A stretch of DNA of 64,000 nucleotides, taken from positions 4,912-68,911 of the forward strand of contig JBKDHA010000186.1 in NCBI GenBank assembly GCA_046335555.1, written 5' to 3'. Shown piece by piece: positions 10,721 through 35,105 of this stretch. Below the pieces are notes generated by a model, which was given only the letters and a program-made list of their open reading frames with translations, made no database searches and was not told the origin of the DNA. Within the stretch, counting starts at the first letter, position 1, and the number at the start of each line of letters is the position of its first letter. The DNA is from Bacteroidota bacterium. GTDB taxonomy: Bacteria > Bacteroidota > Bacteroidia > Palsa-965. The position numbers were made by a program, and so were the translations under genes.

Positions 10721-11474
10721 ACGGTTCATCCGTTTGTTTCTGCTGCTGCTGTTTGTTGCGGCACCTTTGCTGCTGCCTGCAAAAACAGCCGACAGTCTCA
10801 GCACCGATACATCGAAGGTGATGATGCGTGAGCCGGATCCGGAAACGCAAAAAAGTTATTACAGCGACGATTTTTATCGTTACGAACGCAAACGCGGACT
10901 CGAAGACGAAACTTTTTTTGATCGTTTGCTGCGTTCATTTTTTGAAGATAAAGACGAAGATGTTGACCCCAATATTGATTTGCCGGAAAATATTGACAGC
11001 ATCTCACGCGGCGCTCAGGCATTGAATTATCTGCTGCTGGCATTGGCTGTAGGCTTATTGGTTTGGGGATTGATCCGCGCACTTAAAAGCGGATCTGCCG
11101 GAAGACTTTTCAGCGGAAAAACAAAAGGCAGCGACGAAGAAATTGATGCCAGCGTTGAGGATGTAGATATACATTCCATCAACTACGAAACACAAATTGC
11201 GGCAGCCCGCGACCGCGGCGATTTTCGTTATGCGGTGCGGCTTTGGTTTTTAAGCACACTCAAAAATTTCACCGACCGCGAACTGCTGAACTGGAAACCC
11301 GAAAAAACAAATATGGATTACTACTACGAATTGAGCGGTAATCCGATGCAGAAAAAATTCGGCGATATAAGCCGGGTTTACGATTATGTATGGTACGGCG
11401 AACGTGCCATAAATGCCGGCGATTACGAACATGCCGAAGAACAGTTCCGCGATCTGAACCGGAGTTTAAACTAG
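10677..11474 (+). CDS. DUF4129 domain membrane protein
   Basis: Two transmembrane segments plus a C-terminal region (ETQIAAARDRGDFRYAVRLWFLSTLKNFTDRELLNWKPEKTNMDYYYEL...DYVWYGER) typical of DUF4129. The start may be ATG 10695 (MKMLSS). Confidence 0.6.
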   Translation: MATTVPMKMLSSVTERFIRLFLLLLFVAAPLLLPAKTADSLSTDTSKVMMREPDPETQKSYYSDDFYRYERKRGLEDETFFDRLLRSFFEDKDEDVDPNIDLPENIDSISRGAQALNYLLLALAVGLLVWGLIRALKSGSAGRLFSGKTKGSDEEIDASVEDVDIHSINYETQIAAARDRGDFRYAVRLWFLSTLKNFTDRELLNWKPEKTNMDYYYELSGNPMQKKFGDISRVYDYVWYGERAINAGDYEHAEEQFRDLNRSLN

Positions 11475-11480
11475 AATGCA

Positions 11481-12710
11481 ATGCTGAAACGCAGTTGGTT
11501 TCTCTTCTTGCTCTTTGGCCTCGCGGTGGCTCTGCTGGTGACCCTCTCCGGCCGAAACGCCGAGCGCCAGTATTCGTGGCGGGATTTCTACACTGCGGAA
11601 GAACGTCAGCCGTGGGGCTGTAAGATTTTCAGAGATTATGCCGATGAACTTTTCGACGGAGAAGTAACTAATGTGCGCAGCACTATTACCGATCAGTTCA
11701 GAAAAAATGATGTGCCGAAAGGAAATTACATCATCATCAACTCCAACTTTGCGCCTACTTTTTCGGATGTTGGTTATTTATGCCAGTATGCCGAACAGGG
11801 CAGCTCGGTATTTATTGCAGCACAAGAATTCGGATTGCTCGAAGATTCGCTGAAGTTTCGTGCCGGCGGAACAAATCCTGATGATTTTGATTTCAATACT
11901 ACCGATGATGTCAGTCCTGCTGATCAGAAACGAGTGGACACCATACGTTTCGCCAATTTCCTGAATCCGAATCTTAAAAAATCAACCGACTATATTTTCG
12001 ACAGAGAATACAATCAACGCATTTTCAAATTTGCGAATGACAAAAATACAACTGCACTTGGTCGCGACGGCTACGGCAATATCAATTTCATTCGTGTAAA
12101 ATGGGGCAAGGGTGAATTCCTGCTGCATACAATTCCCAAAGCTTTTACCAATTATTACATGGCCGATTCGGCAACATCGTCTTATGGTTTCAAAGCCATG
12201 TCGTATTTGCCAGTTCAGCAAACATTCTGGGATGAGCATTACAAAGACGGACTTCGTGAGAGCAATGACACCCGGCGTTTTCTGATGTCGGAGCCGGCTC
12301 TTAAATTAGCATATTTAGTACTTGTGGTTACCGGCGCATTGCTGCTGCTCTTCCGCGGAAAACGCCGCCAGCGGGCTGTTCCGGAAGTTAAGCCGGTAAT
12401 AAATTCGACACTTGCATTTGTTGAAACAATTGGAACATTGTATTACCGCGAAGGAAATACACAAGACATCATCAATAAAAAAGCAAGCTATTTTCTGGAA
12501 TCTGTCCGCTCCCGTTTTTATGTGCAGACAACAGTTTTTGATGAGCCATTTCTGCAAAAAGTTTCAGGATTATCTGGCGTAAATTATGCGCAGGTAATGC
12601 AGTTGTTTGGCTTCATCGGTCAGCTGCGTGCTATGCAGGGCGGCGGCGATACCGAACTGCGAAAGCTGGAACAGATGATCTGGGATTTTAATCAAAACAG
12701 TAAACGATAA
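11481..12710 (+). CDS. DUF4350 domain protein (N- and C-proximal transmembrane segments around a large periplasmic domain)
   Basis: 409 aa with an N-terminal transmembrane segment, a second transmembrane segment LAYLVLVVTGALLLLFRGKRRQ, and a C-terminal cytoplasmic tail. This architecture usually accompanies MoxR/DUF58 genes. Confidence 0.55.
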   Translation: MLKRSWFLFLLFGLAVALLVTLSGRNAERQYSWRDFYTAEERQPWGCKIFRDYADELFDGEVTNVRSTITDQFRKNDVPKGNYIIINSNFAPTFSDVGYLCQYAEQGSSVFIAAQEFGLLEDSLKFRAGGTNPDDFDFNTTDDVSPADQKRVDTIRFANFLNPNLKKSTDYIFDREYNQRIFKFANDKNTTALGRDGYGNINFIRVKWGKGEFLLHTIPKAFTNYYMADSATSSYGFKAMSYLPVQQTFWDEHYKDGLRESNDTRRFLMSEPALKLAYLVLVVTGALLLLFRGKRRQRAVPEVKPVINSTLAFVETIGTLYYREGNTQDIINKKASYFLESVRSRFYVQTTVFDEPFLQKVSGLSGVNYAQVMQLFGFIGQLRAMQGGGDTELRKLEQMIWDFNQNSKR

Positions 12711-12736
12711 CCGAACCTATTAATTCATAAACCGAC

Positions 12737-13726
12737 ATGAACGAACAAACGCCTAACCCGTTTTTCCAGAGTCGTCTGCCGCTGGCCGATCTTCAGCAGG
12801 CTGTGGCCGACGTGCGTACCGAAATCGGGCGCATTATTGTGGGACAGGATCGTATTGTGGATCTGATGATTTGCGCTTTACTTGCCGACGGTCACGTACT
12901 GCTTGAAGGTGTGCCCGGTGTTGCCAAAACGCTTACCGCAAAACTTCTGGCCCGCACGGTGTCGGTTGGATTTTCGCGCATTCAGTTTACGCCCGATCTT
13001 ATGCCGAGCGATGTAACCGGAACCAGCGTATTCAATGTAAAATCGCAGGAATTTGAGTTTCACCGCGGCCCTATTTTCAGCAATATCGTGTTGATCGACG
13101 AGATCAACCGTGCGCCTGCCAAAACACAATCGGCCTTGTTTGAGGCGATGGAAGAACGGCAGGTTACTATCGACGGGCACACATACATTCTTGATCGTCC
13201 GTTCCTCGTTGTAGCCACACAAAATCCGGTTGAGCAGGAAGGCACATATCGACTGCCTGAAGCACAGTTAGACCGTTTTCTGTTCAAGCTCGAAATCGAC
13301 TATCCATCGCTTGAGCACGAAACACGCATCATTGCCGATTTCCACAACCGCAAGAATGTAATCGACCTGAACAGTGTAAAACCGGTGCTGAGTGCCTCAC
13401 AGCTTCAGGCATTGCGCGAAAAGGTTTTCGGACTGCATGTTGAGCCGAACTTGATTCACTACATCGCACAAATTGTAAACCGCACACGCAACAACAGCGC
13501 ACTGTATCTTGGCGCATCGCCGCGCGCATCACTGGCAATTCTTACCGCATCAAAAGCGATGGCCGCAATGCAGGGCCGCGATTTTGTAACGCCCGATGAT
13601 ATCCGCATTGTAGCTGTGCCTGTGTTGCAGCACCGCGTAATGCTTACACCTGAAAAAGAAATGGAAGGCGCCACCGCCCGCGATGTGGTGATGCAACTCA
13701 TTCAGCAGGTTGAAGTGCCCCGTTAA
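12737..13726 (+). CDS. moxR: MoxR-family AAA+ ATPase
   Basis: Walker A GVPGVAKT, Walker B VLIDEINRA and a typical MoxR C-terminal lid. 329 aa. Confidence 0.9.
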   Translation: MNEQTPNPFFQSRLPLADLQQAVADVRTEIGRIIVGQDRIVDLMICALLADGHVLLEGVPGVAKTLTAKLLARTVSVGFSRIQFTPDLMPSDVTGTSVFNVKSQEFEFHRGPIFSNIVLIDEINRAPAKTQSALFEAMEERQVTIDGHTYILDRPFLVVATQNPVEQEGTYRLPEAQLDRFLFKLEIDYPSLEHETRIIADFHNRKNVIDLNSVKPVLSASQLQALREKVFGLHVEPNLIHYIAQIVNRTRNNSALYLGASPRASLAILTASKAMAAMQGRDFVTPDDIRIVAVPVLQHRVMLTPEKEMEGATARDVVMQLIQQVEVPR

Positions 13727-13747
13727 TCACGAATCCGAAACAGCGAA

Positions 13748-15088
13748 GTGTTCATCATCAACTTCATAAAATCATTCTACCTCACGGGGCGCTTTTTTGC
13801 ACTCTGCCTCGGGTTGGCTGCGCTGGCCATGCTGGCGTATTTCTTTCCCGTGCTGCTGCCTGTTGCAAAAATTGTACTCATTGCCATTCCGGCTGTGCTG
13901 GTGCTTGATACAATTTTAGTGTGGAGTGTTGCGCAAGGCATCATTGCCCGGCGCATTACGATGGACAAACTTTCGAACGGCGATTATAACGATGTAAAAA
14001 TTACAGTCGAAAGCCGTTACCCCATGCCGATGCGTTGCGCTGTGGTTGATGAACTTCCGGTACAATTTCAGGCGCGCGATCTGAGTTTTAAGTTTATGCT
14101 CATGCCTCGTGCTGTGCGAGAACTCACCTACCGCGTGCGTCCTGTCAAGCGCGGCGAATACCGATTCGGGAAAGTGAATGTGTATGTGGCTACTGTGCTT
14201 GGACTCACCGAGCGCCGCTTCAAATTTTCGCAGGAGCAGAATGTGCCGGTTTATCCTTCGTTTATTCAGATGCGCCGGTTTGAACTTTTAGCTATTTCAA
14301 ACCGATTAACGGAAGCAGGCATCAAAAAAATTCGCCGGCGCGGACAGAATACGGAGTTTGACCAAATCAAAGACTACGTTGCCGGCGATGATCCGCGCAC
14401 GGTAAACTGGAAAGCATCAGCACGGCGCAGCAAGCTCATGGTGAATACCTATCAGGACGAGAAATCGCAGCAGGTAGTTTCGCTTATTGATATGGGGCGC
14501 GTAATGAAAATGCCTTTCGAAGAAATGACGCTGCTCGATTATTCGATTAATGCAAGCCTTGTTATTTCAAACATTGCGATGCAGAAATACGACAAGGCCG
14601 GTGTAATTACCTTTTCGCATAAAATACATCAGGCGCTTGCCCCCGAACGGCGCGGCTTGCAGCTTTACAAAATTATGGAGCTGCTCTACGGTGCAAAAAC
14701 AGGTTTCCTCGAAAGCGACTACGAACGCCTGTACATGAGCGTAAAGCAGAAACTCACACAACGCAGTTTGCTCCTGCTCTTCACCAATTTCGAAAGTCTG
14801 AGCAGCATGCAGCGCCAGCTCAAATACCTGCGTCGTTTATCGAAAGATCATTTATTAGTTGTTATCTTTTTTGAAAATACCGAACTGCGCTCGTTCTTAG
14901 ATGAACGTCCGCAAAGTGTGCAGGAGATTTACTACAAAACTGTTGCCGAGAAATTTACGTGGGAGAAAAAATTAATTGTAAAAGAGCTTGAGCAATATGG
15001 CATTCATGCTGTTTATACGGCTCCGCAGAACCTTACTGTTAATACGATTAATAAGTATTTGGAGTTGAAGGCCAGAGGGCTTATTTAA
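13748..15088 (+). CDS. DUF58 domain protein (vWA-like MoxR partner)
   Basis: 446 aa with N-terminal transmembrane helices and a DUF58 core (YVAGDDPRTVNWKASAR...). Sits immediately downstream of moxR. Confidence 0.8.
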   Translation: MFIINFIKSFYLTGRFFALCLGLAALAMLAYFFPVLLPVAKIVLIAIPAVLVLDTILVWSVAQGIIARRITMDKLSNGDYNDVKITVESRYPMPMRCAVVDELPVQFQARDLSFKFMLMPRAVRELTYRVRPVKRGEYRFGKVNVYVATVLGLTERRFKFSQEQNVPVYPSFIQMRRFELLAISNRLTEAGIKKIRRRGQNTEFDQIKDYVAGDDPRTVNWKASARRSKLMVNTYQDEKSQQVVSLIDMGRVMKMPFEEMTLLDYSINASLVISNIAMQKYDKAGVITFSHKIHQALAPERRGLQLYKIMELLYGAKTGFLESDYERLYMSVKQKLTQRSLLLLFTNFESLSSMQRQLKYLRRLSKDHLLVVIFFENTELRSFLDERPQSVQEIYYKTVAEKFTWEKKLIVKELEQYGIHAVYTAPQNLTVNTINKYLELKARGLI

Positions 15089-19638: not shown

Positions 19639-19678
19639 AAAAGCGGCTGTATCTCAACGATACAGCCGCTTTTTATTT
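19639..19678. terminator. Bidirectional rho-independent terminator
   Basis: Perfect 14-bp stem aaagcggctgtatc / gatacagccgcttt. An A-run precedes it and a T-run follows, so it can serve the convergent genes on either side. Confidence 0.65.
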
Positions 19679-20185
19679 CCTGTATTTGGTACTGTCTCCA
19701 ACAGTGTACTTGTACTTTTCAAGTAAATTGGCCAACTCAGTACTATCAACGTCTTTAAAAAACGGATTCGAATCAAGTAATGCGCGCGATTGTTTCATAA
19801 TTCGCTCAGATTCCGCATCTAACTCAGACATCCCTTTGTCAATTGACGATGAAGCAGATTGAATAGCGCATTGAATACTCATTAATCTGATAACAGATTC
19901 AATTGCAGCAGTGTCATTTAATGAATAACGGTATGCCAGTTTATCTAATGAAACCGTTCGGAAACCTTCAAAAAAAGCTAGATTTTCTTCATCTAATACC
20001 GTATCAGCTAAGGGATAAGATGCTGACGGAAATGAACGCATTACATGCTGCAATGAATCAAATAAAGCGTATTGCCTTGGTGTTGCCGAAGATTTTGGCG
20101 TGCAGGAACTGCCAGCAAAAAGCATCAGAACAAAGACTAATATCAATCCGAAATTAAAGCGGAACGAATTACCGGCCATTCTCAC
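19673..20185 (-). CDS. Hypothetical lipoprotein
   Basis: 170 aa with a signal peptide and Cys lipobox (LMLFAGSSC). No recognisable domain. Confidence 0.45.
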   Translation of the reverse strand: MRMAGNSFRFNFGLILVFVLMLFAGSSCTPKSSATPRQYALFDSLQHVMRSFPSASYPLADTVLDEENLAFFEGFRTVSLDKLAYRYSLNDTAAIESVIRLMSIQCAIQSASSSIDKGMSELDAESERIMKQSRALLDSNPFFKDVDSTELANLLEKYKYTVGDSTKYRK

Positions 20186-20510
20186 CTTGTTTCTCTTTAT
20201 GTATGTCTACCCATACCGACATATTCATTAACAAAGCATTCATATCTTCCGGTTTAGTGAAGTTATGTTTTACCAAAACTTCATCTAACTCTTTTTCCAT
20301 AATATCATTCATTACATCAACGGCTTTCTCGCCTTTCCACGTTGCCGCTTCAGCTACAAAATAGCTTCGGTTTTGTTTCATGTATAACTGAAGTGAATCA
20401 TATAACTTGACCTGACTTTCAGTTGCGTATTCTGATTTTTTCTGACAGGAATACAGCATTAACAAGAGTATTCCGAATACTATTGCAGCACGTTGGTTAA
20501 TTGATTGCAT
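20169..20510 (-). CDS. Hypothetical small lipoprotein
   Basis: The likely start is MQSINQRAAIVFGILLLMLYSCQ (ATG at 20510), which gives a 113-aa lipoprotein. The 5'-extended ORF would overlap the divergent sulfotransferase gene. Confidence 0.4.
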   Translation of the reverse strand: MQSINQRAAIVFGILLLMLYSCQKKSEYATESQVKLYDSLQLYMKQNRSYFVAEAATWKGEKAVDVMNDIMEKELDEVLVKHNFTKPEDMNALLMNMSVWVDIHKEKQGENGR

Positions 20511-20553
20511 ACTTAGATTTTTTGAAACATATAAAAATACCAATAATCCTGAA

Positions 20554-21381
20554 TTGGTCTTTGCAGCTTCTCCGTATCTTGGCGCTGTGCCGCACACTCC
20601 CCGACAATACTTTCGTGCCCTGCTGCTGAAATTCGGAATCGGCAACAAAGCTGCATTTCATCTCAATCTTGATGAAATAAGTGCAGACGATGTTTTCCTT
20701 TGCTCCTATCCTAAATCAGGCAATACTTGGCTACGATTTTTACTTGCACATCTTATCAGTTCACGTATCAATATTCATCCAAAAAATATTGATGAGTTGG
20801 TGCCTGATGTTTATATGGCTGCTGAAATTGCCAATAAACTTAAATCGCCGCGCATACTGAAAACGCATCATGCTCTTTTCGATAGTTATCCGAAAACAAT
20901 TTATGTAGTGCGTGATGTGCGCGATGTATTGCTTTCTTACTACCATTATCAAACATCGCTGGGGAAATTCAGCGGAAGTTTAAGCGAATTTATTCGCATT
21001 GCCGATACACTGCATCCCTTCGGAAGTTGGAGCGAACATGTGAAATCAGCATTGGAATTTCAGCAAAAATATCCGCAGCGCATTCTGGTTTTGCGTTACG
21101 AAGATTTACAGCAGCAACCCGAAACCGAATTGCAGAAGATACTTGCATTTACAGGCATAAGCCCTGTACGCAACACTACAGAAGTAATTGAGCTTTCCGC
21201 ATTCGGAAGGCTGCGGAAACTCGAAGACGAACACGGAAGCGCTTTCAGCGAAAAAAGCGGAACACATTTTTTCCGCAGCGGAAAAACAGGAGAAGGACGT
21301 GCAACATTTTCGGCAGAAGAAAACGATTTACTTTTCAAACAGTATGGCAAATTTCTGCAGCAACTTGGATATTCCTTGTAA
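20554..21381 (+). CDS. PAPS-dependent sulfotransferase-family protein
   Basis: 5'-PSB loop YPKSGNTWLRF and 3'-PB region VVRDVRDVLLSYYH. The overall pattern matches Sulfotransfer_1. Confidence 0.75.
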   Translation: MVFAASPYLGAVPHTPRQYFRALLLKFGIGNKAAFHLNLDEISADDVFLCSYPKSGNTWLRFLLAHLISSRINIHPKNIDELVPDVYMAAEIANKLKSPRILKTHHALFDSYPKTIYVVRDVRDVLLSYYHYQTSLGKFSGSLSEFIRIADTLHPFGSWSEHVKSALEFQQKYPQRILVLRYEDLQQQPETELQKILAFTGISPVRNTTEVIELSAFGRLRKLEDEHGSAFSEKSGTHFFRSGKTGEGRATFSAEENDLLFKQYGKFLQQLGYSL

Positions 21382-21429
21382 ACACGCGGAAATCGTTACA
21401 TTTGCTATACAACATCCGACCTACAAGCT

Positions 21430-21666
21430 ATGCCATCTGTTCAGGAACTGATCGAAAAAATTGAAGCTGAAATTGAAGAACTTCCGCGCGGTGTTCTTCA
21501 GCCTGATACTAACTACCGCCAGCTTCCCGAATGGAGTTCGATGCACGCGCTTATTGTGCTGGCACTTGCAGAAACCGAATACAATGTAGCACTGAGCGGC
21601 GAAGACCTACGCAGTTGTTCAACTGTTACTGATCTTCAGAAACTGATTACAAGCCGTATGCCATAA
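21430..21666 (+). CDS. Acyl carrier protein-like (phosphopantetheine-binding) protein
   Basis: 78 aa with a four-helix ACP-like pattern and a candidate phosphopantetheinylated Ser in LPEWSSMHALIVLALAE. The KAS III gene starts 4 nt downstream. Confidence 0.6.
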   Translation: MPSVQELIEKIEAEIEELPRGVLQPDTNYRQLPEWSSMHALIVLALAETEYNVALSGEDLRSCSTVTDLQKLITSRMP

Positions 21667-21669
21667 GTC

Positions 21670-22722
21670 ATGGCTATTTTCACAACAGCAAACGTTCGTA
21701 TCGCAGGCATTTCTGCCGCAGTTCCTGCGCGTTCAGAAAGCAATCTCGATTACGACAAGCTTACCGAAGCTGAACGCAAGCTGCTTGTGAAAACTACAGG
21801 CATCCTGCACCGCCGCATCGCTGCAAAAGATCAAACTCTTACCGACATCGGCGAAGTTGCAGGCAACAAACTCATCGACCAGCTTGGCTGGGATCGCAGC
21901 GAAATTGATTTGTTGGTGCTTGTTACACAATCGCGCGATTACATTTTGCCTTCATCAGCTGTACTTCTTCAACACCGACTTTCACTTCCGCACACCTGTG
22001 CTGCTTTCGATCTCGGACTCGGATGCAGCGGATATGTATATGCGCTTTCGGTTGCAACTGCAATGATGCAGAACGGAGGATTTCGCAAAGGCATCGTTAT
22101 TGCCGGTGATATTTCAACTTCGGGCACCAGCGAACACGACAAAAGCACATACCCGCTTTTTGGTGATGCCGTTACTGCAACCGCTCTCGAATACAAGTCA
22201 GGAGCCGAAGCAATACACTACAACCTGCAGAGCGACGGAAGCGGTGCCAATTCAATAATTATTCCCGACGGCGGTTTGCGCAAGCAGCTTGAACCCGAAT
22301 CGTACATCATGCACGAATACGAACCGGGCATTATCCGCTCGCGCAAACATCTCTGGCTGAACGGACTTGATGTCTTCAACTTCTCAGTGCGTGAAGCGCC
22401 GGCAAATATTCAGCAGCTTTGTGCAAGTGCAAACATTGCTCCCGACGCGCATGACTTTTTTGTGATGCATCAGGCCAATTTGCTGATGAATGAAACCATC
22501 CGGAAAAAGCTAAAATATCCGGCCGAAAAAACGCCCTACTCACTCAACGATTTTGGAAATACAAGCTCTGCCTCTATTCCAATTACTATTGTAAGTCAAT
22601 GCGCTGCAGCAGCCGAAAAACCGCAACGCTGGCTGCTTTCGGGCTTTGGTGTTGGACTAAGCTGGGCCAGCATGAGTATAAAAACCGATGGTTTTGTTTG
22701 TATGCCTGTGATTGAAGTTTAA
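21670..22722 (+). CDS. 3-oxoacyl-ACP synthase III (FabH-like ketosynthase)
   Basis: Cys-His-Asn triad contexts AAFDLGLGCSGYVYAL, FFVMHQANLLMNE and NDFGNTSSASIP. 350 aa. Confidence 0.8.
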   Translation: MAIFTTANVRIAGISAAVPARSESNLDYDKLTEAERKLLVKTTGILHRRIAAKDQTLTDIGEVAGNKLIDQLGWDRSEIDLLVLVTQSRDYILPSSAVLLQHRLSLPHTCAAFDLGLGCSGYVYALSVATAMMQNGGFRKGIVIAGDISTSGTSEHDKSTYPLFGDAVTATALEYKSGAEAIHYNLQSDGSGANSIIIPDGGLRKQLEPESYIMHEYEPGIIRSRKHLWLNGLDVFNFSVREAPANIQQLCASANIAPDAHDFFVMHQANLLMNETIRKKLKYPAEKTPYSLNDFGNTSSASIPITIVSQCAAAAEKPQRWLLSGFGVGLSWASMSIKTDGFVCMPVIEV

Positions 22723-22732
22723 ACGAACCGCA

Positions 22733-23737
22733 ATGCCAGCACGTCTCTCCTATTTTACGTATCATTTGCCGGAACAGGTTTATACCAATGCCGACTTCGC
22801 GCTCGATTTTCCGGAAGCTAAAATGAGCAGTCTCGAAAAAACAGGCGTGCGAAAACGACATATTACACCAAAAGGACAAACCTCATCAGACCTTGCTGTT
22901 CTTGCCGCTGAACGGTTATTTACCGAAAATAATATTGATCGAAACAGTATTGATTTTATCATTTACTGTTCCTTTGATTTGGATTATCATCTGCCCTCAA
23001 CAGCATGCTTGATTCAGCACAGGTTAGGACTGCCTTCACATTGCGGAGCTTTTGACATGGGCTTGGGCTGCAGTGCTTATGTTTACGGCATTGCCACAGC
23101 GGCATCATTGCTTGAAACACTTCAGCTTAAAAATATATTACTGCTCACAGCTTCTTCACTCACACATCAAATACACGAGCGCGACCGAGGGAATCGTTTT
23201 TTGTTTGGTGATGCGGCATCAGCTTCGCTTGTTACGCGCACTGAAAAAGCGTCGATTGGCTCATTTGTTTTTGGTACCGACGGCAGCGGCGGCAATCAAA
23301 TCATTGTTCCGCACGGAGGAATGCGTACACCGCTGCAGGAGGATTCGTTTACAGAATCAACTGATGAATTCGGCAACACAACAGCACCTGCTAATTTTTA
23401 TATGGACGGCATCGGGATTTTCAGGTTTACAGTGGGTGTTGTTCCTAAACTTGTGAACGATGTGCTTACCAAAGCCGCACTAACAAACGATGATATAGAT
23501 CTGTTCGTGTTTCATCAGCCCAATGTTTTCCTGAATGAAATGCTGCGCAAGAAACTAAATATCCCGGCCGAAAAATTTATACACGCAATGGCTGATACCG
23601 GAAATACAGTTCAGGCAACAATTCCGATTGCATTAACTGAGGCGCTGAAAGAAGGTAAACTTAAACCGGGCATGAAAGTACTGCTAGCCGGATTTGGCGT
23701 TGGTTTAAGCTGGGGCGGTTGTATTATTGACTATTAA
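22733..23737 (+). CDS. Second FabH-like 3-oxoacyl-ACP synthase III
   Basis: Triad contexts GAFDMGLGCSAYVYGI, LFVFHQPNVFLNE and ADTGNTVQATIP. ATG 22733 (MPARLSYFTYHLPEQV) is the likely start. The alternative ATG at 22712 would overlap the first KAS gene by 11 nt. Confidence 0.8.
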   Translation: MPARLSYFTYHLPEQVYTNADFALDFPEAKMSSLEKTGVRKRHITPKGQTSSDLAVLAAERLFTENNIDRNSIDFIIYCSFDLDYHLPSTACLIQHRLGLPSHCGAFDMGLGCSAYVYGIATAASLLETLQLKNILLLTASSLTHQIHERDRGNRFLFGDAASASLVTRTEKASIGSFVFGTDGSGGNQIIVPHGGMRTPLQEDSFTESTDEFGNTTAPANFYMDGIGIFRFTVGVVPKLVNDVLTKAALTNDDIDLFVFHQPNVFLNEMLRKKLNIPAEKFIHAMADTGNTVQATIPIALTEALKEGKLKPGMKVLLAGFGVGLSWGGCIIDY

Positions 23738-23752
23738 TAATCGCAATTATCA

Positions 23753-24499
23753 TTGAGCCGAAAACACGATCATCTTCTTTCACGAAAAGGAGCAACGCGA
23801 ACTGCTGACATTCCAGCCGAAGTCCTTGAAGCATTGAATTCAGGCGCAATCAGCACAGTTAATCTTACCGAGTGGCTGATGGTTGACAATCTAAAGCTTC
23901 TTGATGTTGTGCTGAAAGCTGAAAAGCAATCAGCTCTTTTCAAATCTGTAAGCGATGCAGTTGCTGCGCTTAAAAAGCCAACGGTTAACAGTGTGCAGTA
24001 TGCAATAAGTACAACGCTTCGCGCAGCAGCGGGGAAAGATGAAAAGAAAATTTATGCATTGCTTTCGTCGCATCCGTCAGACTCAGTTCGCTGCTGGGCG
24101 GCCTACTATGTTGGTACCGATTCATCGAAAACACTTGAGCAAAAACTGGAGCTCATTGAACCGCTTGCTGCCGATCTGCATTTCGGGGTGCGTGAAGTAG
24201 CCTGGCTTGCTGTTCGCCCTGCCCTTGCGGCTGAACTGAGCAAAGCACTGATACTTCTTAAACCGTGGACACCCAGCAGCGATGCAAACATCAGACGTTT
24301 TACGAGTGAAGCTACGCGGCCACGGGGCGTTTGGTGTGCGCACATTACAGAACTCAAAGAAAAACCTGAACTGGCCTTGCACTTGCTCGAACCCTTGCGC
24401 AGCGATAGTTCTGAATATGTGAGAAACAGTGTTGCCAATTGGCTCAACGATGCTTCTAAAACTCAGCCAAAATGGGTTCAGGAAACTTGTAAACGCTGA
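23753..24499 (+). CDS. DNA alkylation repair protein (AlkD-like HEAT-repeat fold)
   Basis: 248 aa with the helical-repeat pattern and the conserved C-terminal stretch (RRFTSEATRPRGVWCAH...EYVRNSVANWLND) of the DNA_alkylation family. Confidence 0.6.
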   Translation: MSRKHDHLLSRKGATRTADIPAEVLEALNSGAISTVNLTEWLMVDNLKLLDVVLKAEKQSALFKSVSDAVAALKKPTVNSVQYAISTTLRAAAGKDEKKIYALLSSHPSDSVRCWAAYYVGTDSSKTLEQKLELIEPLAADLHFGVREVAWLAVRPALAAELSKALILLKPWTPSSDANIRRFTSEATRPRGVWCAHITELKEKPELALHLLEPLRSDSSEYVRNSVANWLNDASKTQPKWVQETCKR

Positions 24500-24564
24500 A
24501 GCAAAGAATCTCCAACAAAAGAAACGGGAGTGATTGTAAAACGGGCTTTACGAAGTTTATAGCA

Positions 24565-26415
24565 TCAGTCAAAAACCTTTCGATCCGGATCTATCAGCGG
24601 CGATGCTTCTTCAAACTTTGCAGCAAACAACTGTTCTCCTTCAGTATTCAGGTACCCGAATTTTCCTTTGTCTTTGAAAACTGCAAAACCATTTACCATA
24701 GGCTGCACTTCATCGTAGGCGGGAGCAATGCTTATTTTCCCGGTACTGTCAATCATCCCGAATTTACCACTACGGCTCACCGGCGAATAACCTTTGTACA
24801 TAACGCCAATACTGTCGAACTGCGGCTGCACAATGTAGTTTCCTTTATCATCAATCATTCCGCTGCCCGACTCTTCTTTCACCACAGTACGGCCGCCGAA
24901 AAAGTAGATGTAGGTATATGAAAGCGGTTTGTAAATCAAACTTCCGTCGGTACGATAACAGCCTGACATTCCTCCTGCTTCAACAGTAAAATAACCGGGC
25001 TGAAGATGGTAGATTTCATCAAACACAACAGGCAAAATTCTTCGGCCATTTGTATCAATTACGCCTCCCGCACCTGCATTGTCCTGACCATTTCTCAGAT
25101 AACTCAACACCTGCTGAAGTGTATCTGCCGAAGCATTTTTGCTGAGTTCTTTTACATGAAAATAACCATCGCCGAGACTGTAAATAAAAACCCATTCGGG
25201 TTGCGAAACAAATTTCCCGTTCCGGTCGATAAGTCCGTAACGTCCGTTCTGTTCAACAATGGCTCTGTTAAACACATAATCATCCGCAGCCTGAAATTGC
25301 GGCTCAATAATTACTTTTCCTGTAACATCTGCATATCCATAACGGCCATCAGCTGCACGAAAACGGATTCGGCTGCAGCTTACTTTGAATGCTTCCGAAA
25401 CTGTAGTTTGTAATGTGCCTGTTTGCTTACCAGTTTTATCAATAATAATGGTTGCATTGCCTTTGGTAACTGTTGTAAAACCATCCCGGAAAGGAGTTGC
25501 ATAATCATATTGCGGAGCAACAATTTCGTTGCCGCCCGCATCGCAAAAACCATACTTGCCGTTTTTATAAATGCGAAACATTCCATCGCCAAAAACCGGT
25601 TGCTGTTCGTAAACAGGGGCTGCAATAACTTTCCCGGCACTGTCAACAATGCCGTATTTACCAGAAAGTGCCGGTTGCTTTGTTTCTTCTAAAACATCAA
25701 ACTCGTTATCGCTGTTTGAATGCTCATTTTCAGATTCAGCAGTTGCATTCTGTACAAAAGGAAAGTACCAATTGCCGTTATCGCTTGTAAAGATTTCATT
25801 GTACTTCGGCTCAACTACAAGTTTGCCTTTAGCATTTATGAGTCCGTATTTCAAGTTTTTCCCGCCTTCCAGCAATGCCAGCAACATATCTTCAGCATTG
25901 CTTGTATCTTGAGTAATGACAAGCGCAAGCGGCCCGGTCATTTCTTTAAGATCCTGAAGTTGTGGTCTGCATACTAATTCTCCGGCGGCATTCACAATGC
26001 CAAGTGCACGGCCTTTTTGCACCACGCAGAGTTCGGAAGTATAAAAATAGGCTTGATCGAACCGGGCTGCAATCAATTCTTTTCCGGTGCCGTGTGCTGC
26101 AAATCCGAACCGGCCTTTATCGGCAAAAATGAAACACTGTGCACTGAACGGAATTACCGAATCCCAACGCGGGGCAAGAAGTTCTTTGCCTTCTTTATCA
26201 ATCATACCGTACTTGCCATTGCTTTGCACAACAGCAGCACCATTCACAAAACTCCAGGCATTGGTATATTGCGGATCAATTACAAAACTTCCTGTTTCGT
26301 CGATATAGCCGTATTTACCATCAACTTTTACGCAACCGCGCAGCTTTCCGGCTTTTCCGCAGGAAGTGAGCAGCAGCAATATATACAGGGCGAGAAAAGA
26401 AATGTATCTGAACAT
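24565..26415 (-). CDS. WG-repeat lipoprotein
   Basis: Signal peptide plus lipobox (LLLTSCGKAG). More than 12 tandem KYG(Y/F/M)ID..G..VI.P.Y motifs of the WG-containing-repeat family. Confidence 0.65.
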   Translation of the reverse strand: MFRYISFLALYILLLLTSCGKAGKLRGCVKVDGKYGYIDETGSFVIDPQYTNAWSFVNGAAVVQSNGKYGMIDKEGKELLAPRWDSVIPFSAQCFIFADKGRFGFAAHGTGKELIAARFDQAYFYTSELCVVQKGRALGIVNAAGELVCRPQLQDLKEMTGPLALVITQDTSNAEDMLLALLEGGKNLKYGLINAKGKLVVEPKYNEIFTSDNGNWYFPFVQNATAESENEHSNSDNEFDVLEETKQPALSGKYGIVDSAGKVIAAPVYEQQPVFGDGMFRIYKNGKYGFCDAGGNEIVAPQYDYATPFRDGFTTVTKGNATIIIDKTGKQTGTLQTTVSEAFKVSCSRIRFRAADGRYGYADVTGKVIIEPQFQAADDYVFNRAIVEQNGRYGLIDRNGKFVSQPEWVFIYSLGDGYFHVKELSKNASADTLQQVLSYLRNGQDNAGAGGVIDTNGRRILPVVFDEIYHLQPGYFTVEAGGMSGCYRTDGSLIYKPLSYTYIYFFGGRTVVKEESGSGMIDDKGNYIVQPQFDSIGVMYKGYSPVSRSGKFGMIDSTGKISIAPAYDEVQPMVNGFAVFKDKGKFGYLNTEGEQLFAAKFEEASPLIDPDRKVFD

Positions 26416-26444: not shown

Positions 26445-27860
26445 TCAGGCCATCACACCATTAATAGAGGTGGCATGAACATATTCATCTTCTATATCCC
26501 CGAAAATAGCTTCGTAGTGAGTACCGCAGGTTTTCTCGTGAATGTTCGGCCGGTTAACTACAAGATTCCGCCAGCGGGCAAACTGCTTGGGGTTCTTGAG
26601 CATATCCAGAAAATCGCCGTATTTCTCGTAGTTATTGAAGAAATCACCGGCAAGCAGATAATGCACAAGCGAAAATGCAGTCTGATAACCTTCGTAGTTT
26701 GATTCGGAAGTCGAGCTCAGATTAGCCAGATTAAACGACTCGGGATCGTAAAATATATTGATGAATTTTTCGACAAGATTATAAGCCCCGTCAATGTACT
26801 TTTTCCGGTCGGCCATAGCTTGCATACCAGCATCACGGCCTTCTTTCATAAGTACATCAAGAGCTTCGGCAAACATTTTGCTGCTGTTCATACCCAGATA
26901 AACACCCGATGCAAAGATTGGATCAAGGAATTTACCGGCATCGCCAAGCATTACATAATTGCGTCCGAAAGTTTTCTCGGCGTAATAAGAGTAGTCAGAA
27001 ACAGCAATCAGCGGCTGTGCAATTTCTGCATCGGCAAGAATATCGTTGGTAAGGACACAACTCTTTACTTCTTGCAGATACAGCGCCTTTTGCCAGTCTT
27101 CATGACCTTCGGCAGTAAGTTTTGCTTTTTGTTCTTTCAGGTATTTGCGGTTAATCACAAGGCCAACGCTTACCCGGTCTTTGCCAACAGGCTGTATTCC
27201 AAACCAACCGCTTTTGTGTTGTTCGAGATACACAATTTGCAGCAGGCCAACATCAATGCCTTGTGTGTACTTAGCGCCTTTCCAGTGCGTGAGAAATGCA
27301 ATACGGTCAAGCTCCTGATACGAATGCTTGTCGCCCGTGCGGCGAGCCAGAAAAGTATCTTGACCGCTGGCATCAATCAAAAACCGGCCTTCATATTCAT
27401 GCTTTAGTCCGTCTGCTTCTGTAGTATGCACACGCACATTATCTTCGGGCAAGTCAAGTTCTACTTTTTCAACTTTGGCTTGCTCTTTAACCTCAGCCCC
27501 ATGCTTTGCGGCATTATCAAGCAGCATTTTGTCAAAGTCGGCCCGAACAACATGGAATGAAAGATAGCTTTCATCATGAATGATATTCTGAAAACACCAG
27601 GTTGAGCTGGATTTCCCATCGTGACTGGTAAAACGAGCGCCCGGCTTGCGCACGAAACGGCGTTTCATTTCGTCATACACACCAAGTTCTTTGAACAATG
27701 GATAACAAAATGGCAAAAGCGATTCGCCCACATGCTGACGAGGAAATTTTTCTTTCTCAAGCACCAGAACTGAATAGCCTTTCCAGCGCAAATAGGTTGC
27801 AGCTGATGAACCTGTCGGGCCACCGCCTATAATAATGAAGTCGTAAACAGAGGATGCCAT
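26445..27860 (-). CDS. FAD-dependent oxidoreductase, flavin-halogenase-like
   Basis: GxGxxG motif DFIIIGGGPTGSSAA. GESLLP motif. A degenerate WxWxIP-like stretch (SGWFGIQPVG). Start taken at MASSVYDF. Confidence 0.7.
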   Translation of the reverse strand: MASSVYDFIIIGGGPTGSSAATYLRWKGYSVLVLEKEKFPRQHVGESLLPFCYPLFKELGVYDEMKRRFVRKPGARFTSHDGKSSSTWCFQNIIHDESYLSFHVVRADFDKMLLDNAAKHGAEVKEQAKVEKVELDLPEDNVRVHTTEADGLKHEYEGRFLIDASGQDTFLARRTGDKHSYQELDRIAFLTHWKGAKYTQGIDVGLLQIVYLEQHKSGWFGIQPVGKDRVSVGLVINRKYLKEQKAKLTAEGHEDWQKALYLQEVKSCVLTNDILADAEIAQPLIAVSDYSYYAEKTFGRNYVMLGDAGKFLDPIFASGVYLGMNSSKMFAEALDVLMKEGRDAGMQAMADRKKYIDGAYNLVEKFINIFYDPESFNLANLSSTSESNYEGYQTAFSLVHYLLAGDFFNNYEKYGDFLDMLKNPKQFARWRNLVVNRPNIHEKTCGTHYEAIFGDIEDEYVHATSINGVMA

Positions 27861-28031
27861 TGTTTCTTTAATTTGCCTCATTAAATATACAGTAATAAGA
27901 ACAACTGCAATTCGTTTCTGCAGATTAACCTGATTTGTTGAATTGATGTTCGATTTTCAAAACCCTAAATTGAACAAATTGCTGGTTACTAAACAATAAC
28001 GGATGTCAGTATTTTACAGAAAATATTATCA

Positions 28032-28715
28032 TCAGCTCAAAGCAAATTTTCTCATCTCTGTTAATAGCTTATCTGTCATTGGCGGGATATTTCGTGCAAC
28101 ATGTCCGTCAATCCATTCTCGTATATGAATATTCGAGATTAATGCCGAAAACTGTTGTTTCAGATACGTGTTTATATTCTCGTTACTGCTTTTCATTTCC
28201 GACCAAACAGCAGCTCTGTTTTCGAGCAGGAAAACGATGTCTTCAAAGTCATGGCTTACTCTTCCGTCGCCTTTACCTCTGCTTAAAAAAGCTTCAAATT
28301 TTGCAGCAATAAAATACGGTGCTGTGAGTATGTTAATTTGATGCAGTCTGCTGATTTTCCGAGGTACTGCGTGAACAAAACCGTCGGCATACCATTTATT
28401 TTTGAACCCAATAGAAGGATCATCCGTAGGCATTACATCAACAATAATTCCGTCAATTTTGTATCGGCAGACGACCGGAGAAGTCGTATCGTTTTTGAAT
28501 CCTGCCCGTAAAAGTTTTTGATCAAATTCTGTTCGTGCTTTGTAAGTAACCAGTTCAACAATGATATCAATATCATCTGTTGGCCTAATGTCAGTAACCG
28601 GCAAGTCGGCATAAAACGGAATAGTTGATCCGCCTACAAATACTACTTCGTTGTTAAGATTTCCAAGTGCTTTTACAACAGTTTTAATTTGTTCTGTGTT
28701 TCGATTGTTGTTCAT
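28032..28715 (-). CDS. Nucleotidyltransferase-fold protein, AbiEii/DUF1814-like (candidate type IV toxin)
   Basis: Pol-beta-like motif VGGSTIPFYADLPVTDIRPTDDIDIIVEL (GGS..R.T.DIDh). 227 aa. Overlaps the upstream HTH gene by 32 nt. Confidence 0.55.
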   Translation of the reverse strand: MNNNRNTEQIKTVVKALGNLNNEVVFVGGSTIPFYADLPVTDIRPTDDIDIIVELVTYKARTEFDQKLLRAGFKNDTTSPVVCRYKIDGIIVDVMPTDDPSIGFKNKWYADGFVHAVPRKISRLHQINILTAPYFIAAKFEAFLSRGKGDGRVSHDFEDIVFLLENRAAVWSEMKSSNENINTYLKQQFSALISNIHIREWIDGHVARNIPPMTDKLLTEMRKFALS

Positions 28716-29235
28716 TTTTTTCGAGAAGTTTTTTCAATTGTCTTACGGCAATTTCCTTCTCTCTTATTTTGCCGATGCGCAGGACATCGGCAAGTGCCAA
28801 CATTTCGTAAAATTCAGGAGAACTGTGAATGGCTTTTGTTTGCTTGCTGTAAAGCGGTTCAATAAGCAACCCCATAGTTTTCCCCTCGCTGTCGGCCCAT
28901 ACATAGTTAACTTCACTCTTAATGAATTTCTTCATGTAAGGGTGAGAATGAGCTGCCGGTACTCCGCGAACAATTGTTCCGGGCATTTGGGGAAATACGT
29001 ACTTGAAGCCGTATTGCAGGAACTCCAGCAAATTCTGGCTGAATACCTGTTTTTTACTGTGATCTATCAAACCAGCGGCTCTGCTTCGGTTGAGAGATTC
29101 TGAAATTTCAGACAAACTTACGTGCAGAGAGGCGGCTAAGTCAAGCAAAGTCCAGTTTAATTCTGGCAGACTTGCAATTTTTATTAGAATGGCCACATCC
29201 TGCGGCCTCATACCATTATGCTTTCTCATACCCAA
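28684..29235 (-). CDS. Winged-HTH protein, candidate AbiEi-like antitoxin or regulator
   Basis: N-terminal HTH-like segment (PQDVAILIKIASLPELNWTLLDLAASLHVSLSEISESLNRSRAAGLI). Translationally coupled to the nucleotidyltransferase gene. Confidence 0.4.
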   Translation of the reverse strand: MGMRKHNGMRPQDVAILIKIASLPELNWTLLDLAASLHVSLSEISESLNRSRAAGLIDHSKKQVFSQNLLEFLQYGFKYVFPQMPGTIVRGVPAAHSHPYMKKFIKSEVNYVWADSEGKTMGLLIEPLYSKQTKAIHSSPEFYEMLALADVLRIGKIREKEIAVRQLKKLLEKNEQQSKHRTN

Positions 29236-32560: not shown

Positions 32561-32701
32561 CATCCCCTGAAACGGTCGTTCCAAGCGGAGCGACCGTTTC
32601 TTATTTATCGGCGATATTGTTTTGAATTTGCGGAATAATTCCGACTCCTGTAAGGCTAATTATTTTGTGTGTTGTATTTTGCAAAAGCTAAAACACACCA
32701 A

Positions 32702-35105
32702 ATGATCAAACAAATCTTCATCATCGGCTGTATTCTGTATGCCACATTGGGCTTTCAGCCACTTCCTGCTCAGGAAGCCGACAAACTAAATACAGGTTAT
32801 TTCCCCGGATTCCCCGACCGCCCCGCAAGTCACAATTTTCAGCATTACTCGGGTGCTGATATGCGCGAGTTATGGAGTACCGCATCAACTGGTGAACAGC
32901 GTACAATGTCACTGTCAATGTGGAAATACATAGGTCCGGATAATGCGAATAACCTATGCGGAGCTGGTCGTGTAAACTGTGTAGCTGTTGATCCGCTCGA
33001 CAGCAATTCAATTTGGCTGGGTTCTGCAAGCGGTGGTTTGTGGAAGAGCACTAATGGCGGCCAATCATGGACTCCGACTTCTGATTTGTTTGCATCGCTG
33101 GGTGTAACCAAAGTACAGTATGATCCGCTCAACGCACAAACCATTTATCTCGCCACAGGCGATGCAAACGGTGGCGATGCCTATTCATTTGGTTTGTTAA
33201 AGAGTACAGACGGAGGTGCAACGTGGGATTCTACTGCACTTTCATTCACTCTTCAGGCCAATGAATACATCCGTGATTTTTCATTACATCCGTCACTTGC
33301 CGGAAATATTGTAGTAATTACTAACCGGTATATTTACCGCTCAATTGATGGCGGAACAACATTTACACCGTCTCTCAGCGGCGATTTTTACAGTGTGGCG
33401 CGTGACTTGCAAAATGCATCTGTATTGTATGTGACTTCATATCCTGATCAGAATTATTCCTATGCGCGCATTCGTGTGAGCACAAACAATGGTGCAAGCT
33501 GGAGCTTTTGCGATTCGGGATTGCCGGCAACTTATTTCAAAATAAAACTTGCTGTAACACAGGCTCAGTCAACATCATTGTTTGCAGCCGGTATTAAACT
33601 TGGTACCGATTCGATGAATTTAATCGAGACTCCTGATGGAGGGCAAAACTGGTTTACATCGCCTTATCATAATATCGGACAACAAACCTGGTTTAATCTG
33701 TATTTTGATGTTTCGCAGAGTCTTCCACTTCGTTTTTATTTCGGTGCAGTTTGGAGTTGGAAATCAACCGACGCTGGCTTAACATGGAATACAATGTCGC
33801 AATGGGCTCCTGTGCATTGTGATCACCACGGTATTCTGCAAACCGGCAACGGACGTTTTTTTGATTGCAATGATGGCGGAATCTGGAAAACTGCCGACGA
33901 TGGTAATACATGGACCAGTTTGAACAATAATCTGGGTGCGCTGCAATTTTACAGGATGAATGTATGCAAAACTGATACTGCAGTTATTGGCGCCGGTGCA
34001 CAAGATAATTGCTATGTGGTAAAAAGTCAGGGAACCGGAAACAACTGGCATTCTGATGTAGGGGGCGATATTATGGAAGTGCTTATTGATCCTGTTGTTT
34101 CAAATAATCATTATGTGATGGGAATTGGAGGCGCTATGGCTGCATCATCAACCGGTGGTGCAAACTGGTATGGGATACCGGCTCAGTCTAGTCCGCTGCC
34201 GGTCGGGTAATTGGATCACTCCTTTTGCTATTAATCCGCAAAATACGCGCTCATTTATTGCCGGTTTTGCCGAAGTCTGGAAGTCGTATGATGCCTGTAT
34301 GAACTGGGTGCCGATTTCGTCCAACCTGAACAACGGAAATAATCTGAGCTGCATAGCTTTTGCACCTTCCGACAGCAATGTGATTTATGCTGCCGACTAC
34401 AATCGTTTTTATGCTACTTACAATTCGGGACAAAACTGGCAAAACTATTCATCAGTGCTTCCTGCAGGAGTTCCCGTTCACCGGGTTTTTGTACATCCGC
34501 AGCAGCCAATGGAAGTATGGATTGTATGCGGCGGCTTTCAGTCGGGAAGCAAAGTGTATAAATCGGTAAACGGCGGTGTTTCGTGGACTAATCTTTCTGC
34601 CGGATTACCGAATATTCAGTTAAACTGCGGTGTGTTGACTGGAGATGGTGAGAACACTGTCTTTCTGGGTTCGGCAGCCGGCATGTATATGAAAAACGAT
34701 TCATTGGCCGGATGGACTAAGTTGCAGAATGGTTTTCCCAATGCCAATGTATCGGATCTTGAATATGTGGATGCATTCCGGACGGTATTTTGTTCCACCT
34801 ATGGACGGGGAATGTGGAAGTTTGAGTTGCCACCGGTTACCACCGGAGTATTGATGCCCGATGCCGTTACACCGGTTACTGTTTTCCCTTCTCCCGCCAG
34901 CGATTTTGTTCAGGTACATTTCACAAATGCGCTTTCGCAACCTGTGCGATTAGCTGTGTTTGATGCCTACGGAAAGCTGGTTCAAACGCAATCTCTTAGT
35001 CAGTCTGTCCGCTTAGACACTTCATTGTGGTCTTCGGGACTTTACTTTTTTCAGTTCGAAACCGGTGGCACTACATACACGAAACGTGTGGCTGTTTCAC
35101 ACTGA
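32702..35105 (+). pseudogene. BNR/sialidase-like beta-propeller glycosidase-type protein with a T9SS C-terminal domain, frame-disrupted at about 34169-34214
   Basis: Two overlapping ORFs (32669-34210 and 34125-35105) in different frames encode a single protein. BNR/propeller motifs (S.DGG.TW) run throughout. The C-terminal T9SS domain is VFPSPASDFVQVHF...GLYFFQFETGGTTYTKRVAV. The signal peptide starts at ATG 32702. A 46-nt segment (34169-34214), flanked by aactgg/aattgg, separates GGANW from ITPFAINP and shifts the frame. Confidence 0.6.

Follow-up and report, generated by a model that had tools for sequence, protein, structure and literature searches.

Pairs of ketoacyl-ACP synthase III (KAS III) enzymes encoded together with a small acyl carrier protein (ACP) are known from the O-polysaccharide locus of Flavobacterium psychrophilum, in which wfpC encodes a KAS III of 333 aa, wfpD an ACP of 76 aa, wfpE a second KAS III of 350 aa that is 33% identical to WfpC, and wfpF a ketoreductase (KR) of 242 aa, with wfpG coding for a PglD-like protein (PMC6519341, Cisar, Bush & Wiens 2019). 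Based on the chemistry of the O-antigen, the predicted product of wfpC-F is 3,5-dihydroxyhexanoyl, the N-acyl group of D-Qui2NAc4NR, with a proposed transfer of this group from the ACP to UDP-D-Qui2NAc4NH2 (PMC6519341), an assignment that was repeated in a 2026 preprint. Sulfation of a carrier-bound beta-hydroxyacyl chain is in turn known from the sulfotransferase domain of olefin synthase (Ols) and CurM (PMC11730487). Here we describe a block of four genes encoding a sulfotransferase (ST), an ACP and two KAS III paralogs (KAS-A and KAS-B) in a 64-kb stretch of contig JBKDHA010000186.1 from the Bacteroidota bacterium assembly GCA_046335555.1. This whole stretch is referred to as the window, and all window positions are given on it.

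With moderate confidence, we regard the block as a lineage-specific, trimmed derivative of a widespread Bacteroidota acyl-building cassette; the block would make a C4-C6 oxo- or hydroxyacyl-ACP that becomes O-sulfated and is passed to unlinked enzymes. The core of the cassette is a small unit similar to type II fatty acid synthesis (KAS-B, dedicated ACP, KAS-A and a KR), and its most likely task is to furnish sugars of the cell surface with short hydroxy-acyl groups. The four genes have clear identities and complete sets of catalytic residues, they are under purifying selection and orthologous to genes of the cassette, and the reductase, the GT2 glycosyltransferase and the acyltransferase of the cassette have been lost from both the locus and the window.

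A four-gene block conserved in six loci

The block consists of four open reading frames (ORFs) on the + strand, all in the same direction, between 20554 and 23737. The frame of the ST gene is open from TTG 20554; the start is most likely GTG 20587 (20587..21381, +, 264 aa), because the homologs have 263-264 aa, the alignment with the ST of locus L007 begins at 20587, and the relatives L002, L115 and L116 carry a terminator-like hairpin directly upstream of ST (L numbers denote the loci fetched for comparison). The WfpD-like ACP gene (21430..21666, +) codes for 78 aa and the KAS-A gene (21670..22722, +), WfpE-like by size and position, for 350 aa. KAS-B (22733..23737, +), WfpC-like by size, most likely begins at ATG 22733 rather than TTG 22712, as the resulting 334 aa equal the length of its homologs. 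An earlier sequence-only reading of this stretch had described four co-directional genes in an operon-like layout with these identities and intact active sites, in agreement with our ORFs, Pfam matches and motif alignments. The layout stands, while the spacers of 4-48 nt given there have to be revised to 48, 3 and 10 nt with the corrected starts of ST and KAS-B, leaving no overlap between the genes.

The exact order ST-ACP-KAS-A-KAS-B was found in six loci from different samples (the window, L001, L002, L005, L115 and L116), so that the linkage in related genomes, proposed as a check by the sequence-only reading, is borne out. The neighbours differ among the six loci and include two small lipoprotein genes, a 565-aa ORF, a KptA-like gene and an AlkD-like gene. 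Since six diverged loci have the same block between varying flanks, the conserved unit is taken to comprise the four genes without the AlkD-like gene. Between the window and L001, the ratio of nonsynonymous to synonymous substitution rates (dN/dS) is 0.147 for ST, 0 for ACP, 0.046 for KAS-A and 0.053 for KAS-B, at unsaturated dS values of 0.31-0.65. Over all pairs it lies between 0 and 0.18 for the four genes, with 0.07-0.18 for ST, whose identity to the window copy is 65-82% in the other five loci, and frameshifts are absent. All four genes are thus under purifying selection, far beyond what chance would produce. Metagenome scans for close relatives of KAS-B returned none, or only sequences of at most 48% identity, and added no further members to this clade.

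Ketosynthases, carrier protein and sulfotransferase

KAS-A and KAS-B both match the Pfam families ACP_syn_III and ACP_syn_III_C and are 35% identical to each other. The Cys-His-Asn triad, Cys119-His267-Asn297 in KAS-A and part of an HQPN variant in KAS-B, is invariant in 106 of 106 sequences of the KAS-A clade and 39 of 39 of the KAS-B clade. These clades were defined in a neighbour-joining tree of 148 sequences, comprising the KAS genes of the fetched loci, the structures 4efi and 3gwa and three FabH structures; neighbour-joining trees are coarse, and bootstrap values come from a 43-sequence subsample. The KAS-A clade unites 105 sequences with 4efi (100% bootstrap) and the KAS-B clade 38 sequences with 3gwa (71%), the window genes nest in their respective clades, and FabH falls outside both (100%). 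In this tree the two appear as sister clades, present in about 90 loci, and in both of them the nearest relatives of the window genes belong to sulfotransferase-rich clusters (L004, L009, L010, L011 and L028). In line with this, KAS-A is 57-64% identical to the cassette KAS of L004 and L007, and KAS-B is 45% identical to the L004 KAS-B, which is located upstream of the ACP there. Among PDB entries, KAS-A is closest to 4efi from Burkholderia xenovorans (212 bits) and KAS-B to 3gwa from B. pseudomallei (287 bits), with true FabH structures scoring 137-175 bits against the two proteins. Both Burkholderia entries are structural-genomics depositions with no function in their deposited names and thus supply a fold, not a function.

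The two enzymes have the thiolase fold and the Cys-His-Asn triad of housekeeping FabH, the initiating enzyme of type II fatty acid synthesis, and presumably they also catalyse its decarboxylative Claisen condensation with malonyl-ACP. They differ by an identity to FabH of only about 29-32% and by an insertion of about 15 residues before the catalytic His, which is present in both KAS clades and absent from FabH. With TIGR00747 the two proteins score 203.7 and 226.5, short of the cut-off of 292.1, and together with the position outside FabH at full bootstrap support this rules out housekeeping FabH. With the ACP scores given below, this upholds the earlier judgement that the block is not part of housekeeping fatty acid synthesis. 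The same reading had likened the pair to DarB, OleA and alkylpyrone-type enzymes, a proposal that fails against profile and PDB scores far below cut-offs and below those of FabH. For DarB/StlD, NF053539 yielded 16.8 and 35 bits (cut-off 550) and NF005293 27.6 and 39.2 bits (cut-off 450). Xanthomonas OleA structures were excluded at 47-69 bits over residues ~28-149 only, well below the FabH range, and PqsD (78-112 bits) and CorB (70-86 bits) also matched more weakly than ordinary FabH. No DarA, OleBCD or PqsA partner genes were found by Pfam annotation of the window ORFs. DarB/StlD, OleA, PqsD/PqsBC and CorB/MxnB belong to the same superfamily as the window KAS III.

The 78-aa protein has no Pfam match. 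Nevertheless, a profile built from nine of its orthologs had ACPs alone as its leading PDB matches (2lml, 6.7e-5), and the orthologs in L004 and L010 match PF00550 weakly. Its W-S-S-M motif, which is invariant among the orthologs, aligns with W-D-S-L of known ACPs, identifying Ser37 as the predicted phosphopantetheine site. A single-sequence AlphaFold2 model (pLDDT 69) shows a four-helix ACP topology in which helix II begins at Ser37, and with this model Foldseek returned carrier proteins as 50 of its 50 best matches. Homology and model therefore agree in pointing to a genuine, if divergent, carrier protein. Its sequence equals that of the L001 protein (100% identity) at a dS of 0.31, and the identity falls to 70% with the L007 ACP and to 49% with that of L004. 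Housekeeping AcpP was rejected on scores of 16-20 bits against AcpP model cut-offs of 66-84, the best NCBIfam ACP model reaching 19.8 against 72, and also by the WSSM that stands in place of the DSL motif.

ST matches Pfam Sulfotransfer_1 (PF00685; 1.5e-37, 129.8 bits), and its closest PDB entries are the phenol sulfotransferases SULT1A1 and SULT1A2 (83-87 bits). PKSGNTW is invariant in 40 of 40 orthologs, and RDxRD and the catalytic K-x-H are conserved. The window protein carries PKSGNTW, K-T-H-H, RDVRD and RSGKTGEGR (GxxGxxR), and therewith the phosphosulfate loop, the catalytic His, the 3'-phosphate motif and the GxxGxxK/R motif that characterize the SULT type (Sulfotransfer_1). By these motifs the enzyme is predicted to depend on 3'-phosphoadenosine 5'-phosphosulfate (PAPS). 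It is orthologous, at 44-53% identity, to a sulfotransferase (ST1) of the much larger, extended clusters L003, L004, L006 and L007. The likeness to the CurM/Ols domain is conceptual, that domain being a precedent for PAPS-dependent sulfation of a beta-hydroxyl built by a ketosynthase and a KR on an ACP; the window ST belongs to another sulfotransferase lineage, and the window proteins are free-standing, not a module of a type I polyketide synthase. Unlike the sulfotransferase-thioesterase pair of CurM/Ols, the locus contains no thioesterase, hence an olefin-forming elimination is not expected.

The Bacteroidota cassette and the window clade

An alignment scan of species-representative genomes with KAS-A found 593 relatives, from which 80 loci were kept. 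Cassette components were mapped by tblastn, a coarse approach, and counted over 82 loci outside the window clade with enough flanking sequence. An SDR-type KR adjoins KAS-A in 71 of these 82 loci, and 59 have a small ACP directly upstream of KAS-A, followed in frequency by a pair of GT2 and GNAT-like genes (40), KAS-B (33), genes of the Asp/Arg-hydroxylase family (19), sulfotransferases (14), and a second ACP and/or an acyl-CoA-dehydrogenase-like gene (7). The usual order in Bacteroidota is KAS-B-ACP-KAS-A-KR-GT2-GNAT, e.g., in Aequorivita sp. H23M31 (CP034951.1, L008) and on a 4.8-Mb JGI contig (L009). Besides Aequorivita sp. H23M31, Flavobacterium fluviatile TAPY14 is a cultured strain with the full cassette. 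The GT2 protein aligns with ArnC along its entire length (174.8 bits), the GNAT protein matches PseH (52.9 bits) and the hydroxylase matches OlsC and LpxO (113.6 and 61.7 bits). Moreover, the adenylase is an amino-acid adenylation domain, the second ACP resembles an ornithine-lipid ACP model, and the dehydrogenase resembles the prolyl-carrier-protein dehydrogenases PigA and RedW (338 and 289 bits).

In a Prevotella metagenome-assembled genome (MAG), the unit has the order ACP-KAS-KR-KAS and is embedded in a classical polysaccharide locus with genes for a DegT aminotransferase, an ATP-grasp protein, a PglD-like acyltransferase, a FabD-like protein and Wzx. L030 has KAS-B-ACP-KAS-A-KR on its own in a neighbourhood of housekeeping genes, showing that the acyl unit can stand apart from its transferases. 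Units without KR (ACP-KAS-A-GT2-GNAT) occur in five Chitinophagales loci, so a missing dedicated KR need not mean a loss of function. The adjacency ST-ACP-KAS-A recurs in L007 as in the window clade. In the extended form, e.g., in L004 (Chitinophagales MAG GCA_046329535.1) and L008, ST1, ACP, KAS-A and KAS-B are orthologous to the four window genes. Additionally, this cassette has a KR, an ArnC-like GT2, a PseH-like GNAT, one or more OlsC-like hydroxylases, two to four further sulfotransferases of other families, a protein of about 820 aa and an ACP-adenylase-PigA/RedW-like dehydrogenase set, all of which the window lacks.

The window clade is the only one in which ST-ACP-KAS-A-KAS-B is kept and KR, GT2 and GNAT are all missing. 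Its KAS-B sits downstream of KAS-A, where the KR normally stands, and tblastn detected no hydroxylase, other sulfotransferase, ~820-aa protein, adenylase or acyl-CoA dehydrogenase homolog in the window. Both KAS trees give sulfotransferase-rich clusters as the nearest relatives, which argues that the block arose from a cluster of this type through gene loss and rearrangement. In all six loci, ST alone of three to five ancestral sulfotransferases was retained, beside the ACP and KAS genes, and the sugar-handling genes were lost.

Compared with wfpC-D-E, the window has the same composition of two KAS III paralogs and a small ACP, within the same phylum and with similar sizes (334, 78 and 350 aa) and a similar identity between the paralogs (35%), the comparison being one of size and identity figures. 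Furthermore, about 30 relatives of the window genes show KAS-B-ACP-KAS-A-KR in exactly the wfpC-F order. The window block differs in having no WfpF-like KR (tblastn, 64 kb), no acyltransferase (the PglD-like WfpG in F. psychrophilum, a PseH-like GNAT in most Bacteroidota relatives), a KAS-B that follows KAS-A instead of preceding the ACP, an attached ST, and a position outside any polysaccharide locus. The sequence-only reading had taken two KAS III enzymes with an ACP as the hallmark of head-to-head or starter-unit condensation; given the frequencies of KR and of the GT2-GNAT pair listed above, the combination is here a signature of the wfpC-D-E-F type. It had also called the module self-contained, which does not fit a trimmed derivative that lacks the KR and transferases of its relatives, with none of them elsewhere in the window. 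Its statement that no characterized Bacteroidota pathway is known with exactly this composition is literally correct, yet a close relative, wfpC-F, had already been described as a prediction.

The extended clusters were noted for several further features. A set of genes for an ACP, an amino-acid adenylase and a PigA/RedW-like dehydrogenase, which fits the classical route from a prolyl- to a pyrrolyl-carrier protein, is found in L004 (12316-15189), L003 (12292-16328) and L031 and L035 (~15.6-21 kb), with a canonical halogenase in the latter two, and the ~820-aa protein beside the prolyl-carrier genes has a weak C-terminal SGNH/GDSL match. Within L016, L031, L033, L035 and L036, some cassettes carry three tandem OlsC/LpxO-like hydroxylases without a sulfotransferase and others as many as five sulfotransferases; the KAS-ACP-KAS-KR-GT2-GNAT core is constant, whereas the genes for decoration are not. 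In L030 and L008, genes for TMTC/TPR-type proteins directly precede the cassette.

Possible products and genomic neighbourhood

We infer the chain length, the order in which the two KAS III enzymes act, the target of sulfation and the acceptor as follows. The dedicated ACP would be charged with malonate by the housekeeping malonyl transacylase, and one KAS III would form a 3-oxoacyl-ACP from malonyl-ACP and a short acyl-CoA, acetyl-CoA being the probable primer. The second KAS III would add one more condensation and thereby extend the chain to C6, with one non-iterative KAS III per condensation. The keto groups might be reduced by an unlinked reductase such as FabG or be left as ketones. ST would then O-sulfate a chain hydroxyl with PAPS, either on the carrier or after transfer, and an acyltransferase encoded elsewhere would pass on the (sulfo)acyl group, the most likely acceptor being an amino sugar in a surface glycoconjugate. 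The coupling of ST to the acyl chain is suggested by its co-retention with the ACP and KAS genes, by the adjacency in L007 and by the CurM precedent.

A number of observations weigh against this scheme. A tblastn search of all 64 kb (E<1e-3) detected neither KR nor GT2 nor GNAT, the Pfam matches of another 20 window ORFs included no PAPS-synthesis gene, thioesterase or acyltransferase, and the long contigs of the clade, up to 1.12 Mb, yielded no PseH-like GNAT, a test of low power like all absence tests on MAGs. The partners required by the scheme are therefore hypothetical. The function of wfpC-F is itself a prediction, and the likeness of the window genes to Wfp lies in order, sizes and identities. 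No CurM/Ols sulfotransferase domain is among the PDB sequence matches of ST at E<=1e-3. SULT1-like enzymes, moreover, usually act on free small molecules such as phenols and alcohols, and in most extended clusters ST1 adjoins the ~820-aa protein and the prolyl-carrier genes (second ACP, adenylase and dehydrogenase), not the KAS unit, so its substrate could belong to the prolyl-carrier branch instead of being an acyl chain.

The spacer between ST and ACP adds a further point of this kind. The -7 promoter consensus of Bacteroidota is TAnnTTTG, and TACATTTG at 21397..21404 (+), 25 nt before the ACP start, fits it. The box is exact at the matching position in L001 and L007, and L002, L005, L115 and L116 have TATATTTA there, with one mismatch. 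As the consensus occurs at 0.0004 per nt per strand across the window, the chance of a match within the 48-nt spacer is about 2%. The box suggests an internal promoter and partly independent transcription of the genes behind it. A scan of 20100-24700 for sigma-70 promoters and terminators gave fewer sites than shuffled sequences, the sigma-70 model being uninformative for Bacteroidota, and an Rfam scan of the window gave no match.

These points on ST, namely the conserved box, its place in the extended clusters and its phenol- and alcohol-type structural relatives, favour an alternative in which ACP-KAS-A-KAS-B makes an unsulfated short acyl group for a glycan, with ST as a conserved neighbour acting on an unrelated acceptor. 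We consider this unlikely, given that the ST-ACP spacing is constant at 48-49 nt in all six clade loci although the flanks vary, that the adjacency returns in the distant L007, and that ST is the one ancestral sulfotransferase kept, next to the acyl unit.

Sulfation of a free phenol- or enol-like product would also be expected if, in a modified form of the earlier reading's idea, the block were a self-contained small-molecule route, in which a 3,5-dioxoacyl-ACP cyclises to a pyrone of the triacetic-acid-lactone type or to an enol or aromatic compound before being sulfated. Pyrone formation by fatty acid and polyketide synthases deprived of reduction is classical chemistry, no KR is present in locus or window, ST is closest to phenol sulfotransferases, and the block is invariant between varying flanks. 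Still, we regard this route as distinctly improbable, as KAS orthologs are accompanied by a KR in 71 of the 82 loci, the enzymes are not DarB-, OleA-, PqsD- or CorB-like, Pfam annotation found no cyclase/aromatase, thioesterase or exporter nearby, and housekeeping FabG could provide the reduction. A related and more speculative idea, to which we give little weight, is that the leftover cassette has been repurposed into a minimal pathway without reductase and transferase, in which a triketide built by the dedicated ACP and the two non-iterative KAS III enzymes would be released as a pyrone or enol that undergoes aryl-type sulfation and perhaps tailoring by a halogenase-derived flavoprotein encoded 2.7 kb downstream.

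Only a slim chance remains for a lipid pathway, in which a long-chain acyl-CoA primer would lead via a long 3-oxo- or 3-hydroxyacyl-ACP to a sulfated membrane lipid. Some KAS III enzymes take long primers, and the extended clusters contain OlsC/LpxO-like 2-hydroxylases and the ornithine-lipid-like second ACP. However, the one chemistry linked to such an arrangement of genes concerns a C6 acyl group, the partners are of the sugar-nucleotide type (PseH-like, PglD-like, DegT and ArnC-like), and the window has no lipid acyltransferase. Finally, a non-functional remnant, as the loss of most of the ancestral cassette might suggest, or a housekeeping fabH/acpP pair is hardly credible in view of the low dN/dS values, the absence of frameshifts and the invariant active sites, which reject decay, and of KAS enzymes outside FabH and an ACP unlike AcpP.

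The flavoprotein gene (26445..27881, -; 478 aa), possibly associated with the module but of uncertain membership, lies downstream of the block in each of the six clade loci, at a distance of 0.6-2.7 kb, and is 89-96% conserved. Its closest structures are the carrier-protein-dependent halogenases CndH, PltA, CmlS and Bmp2 (143-149 bits). The WxWxIP motif is degenerate, being replaced by GWFGIQP in six of six clade loci, and homologs of 44-46% identity in L031 and L035 keep GWIWVIP or GWMWVIP and adjoin prolyl-carrier genes. Possibly, the protein is a halogenase turned to another use and a second relic of the ancestral cluster.

Closer to the block, an AlkD-like HEAT-repeat gene (23753-24499, +; DNA_alkylation, 31 bits) begins 15 nt after KAS-B and is probably co-transcribed. 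As a fifth member of the module it was ruled out, being absent from L115 and separated from KAS-B in L002 and L005 by a gene for a KptA/Tpt1-like RNA 2'-phosphotransferase. In front of ST, all six clade loci have a second conserved motif, (T)TATCTTG (20570-20586), at 6-14 nt from the start. At 19673-20513 (-) there are two small lipoprotein genes that are specific to the clade, have no Pfam match and are shared only with L001 and, in the case of one of them, L005; the mechanically called ORF 20169-20648 overlaps the ST ORF, and the real lipoprotein start is probably the signal-peptide Met at 20513. The 565-aa ORF occurs at this position in L001, L002, L005 and L116 and is missing from the window.

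Further away, an AbiEii-like nucleotidyltransferase toxin and its upstream partner at 28032-29235 (-), between the flavoprotein gene and feoB, form a putative AbiE-type pair that is present in L001 and L005 and absent from L115 and L116. Two ORFs at 32669-35105 (+; 513 and 326 aa, 86-nt overlap) both contain Sortilin/Vps10 repeats, the second ending in a type IX secretion system sorting domain; a frameshift or an assembly error may have split what is a single gene. A PMT_2 (ArnT-like GT-C) glycosyltransferase, a type of enzyme that uses undecaprenyl-phosphate-sugar donors, is encoded at 36436-37872 (-), 13 kb from the module, any link between the two being hypothetical. An unrelated run of genes at 8398-15088 (+), for SpoIIM-like, unknown, DUF4129, DUF4350, MoxR-type AAA and DUF58 proteins, is syntenic in all clade loci. 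A linkage to WG-repeat proteins was dismissed, as the matches in L008, L055 and L073 are only repeat similarity of 21-25%.

Overall, the extended Bacteroidota cluster is arguably a more interesting lead than the four-gene block itself. We found no description of it in the searchable literature, which does not cover most subscription journals, so that it is apparently undescribed. Its probable role is to place sulfated, acylated amino sugars on the cell surface, which bears on serotype variation, on phage and host recognition and on sulfur-containing glycans of marine and freshwater habitats. Should the four-gene block instead have been repurposed, uncultured Bacteroidia would have a tiny type-II-like polyketide/sulfate pathway of a new kind. 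The KAS-ACP-KAS(-KR) unit is very common, with the 593 relatives found here, yet its assignment in F. psychrophilum is only predicted. As a natural minimal version of this unit with a single ST, the window block offers a compact system for studying the roles of the two KAS enzymes, chain length and carrier-bound sulfation.

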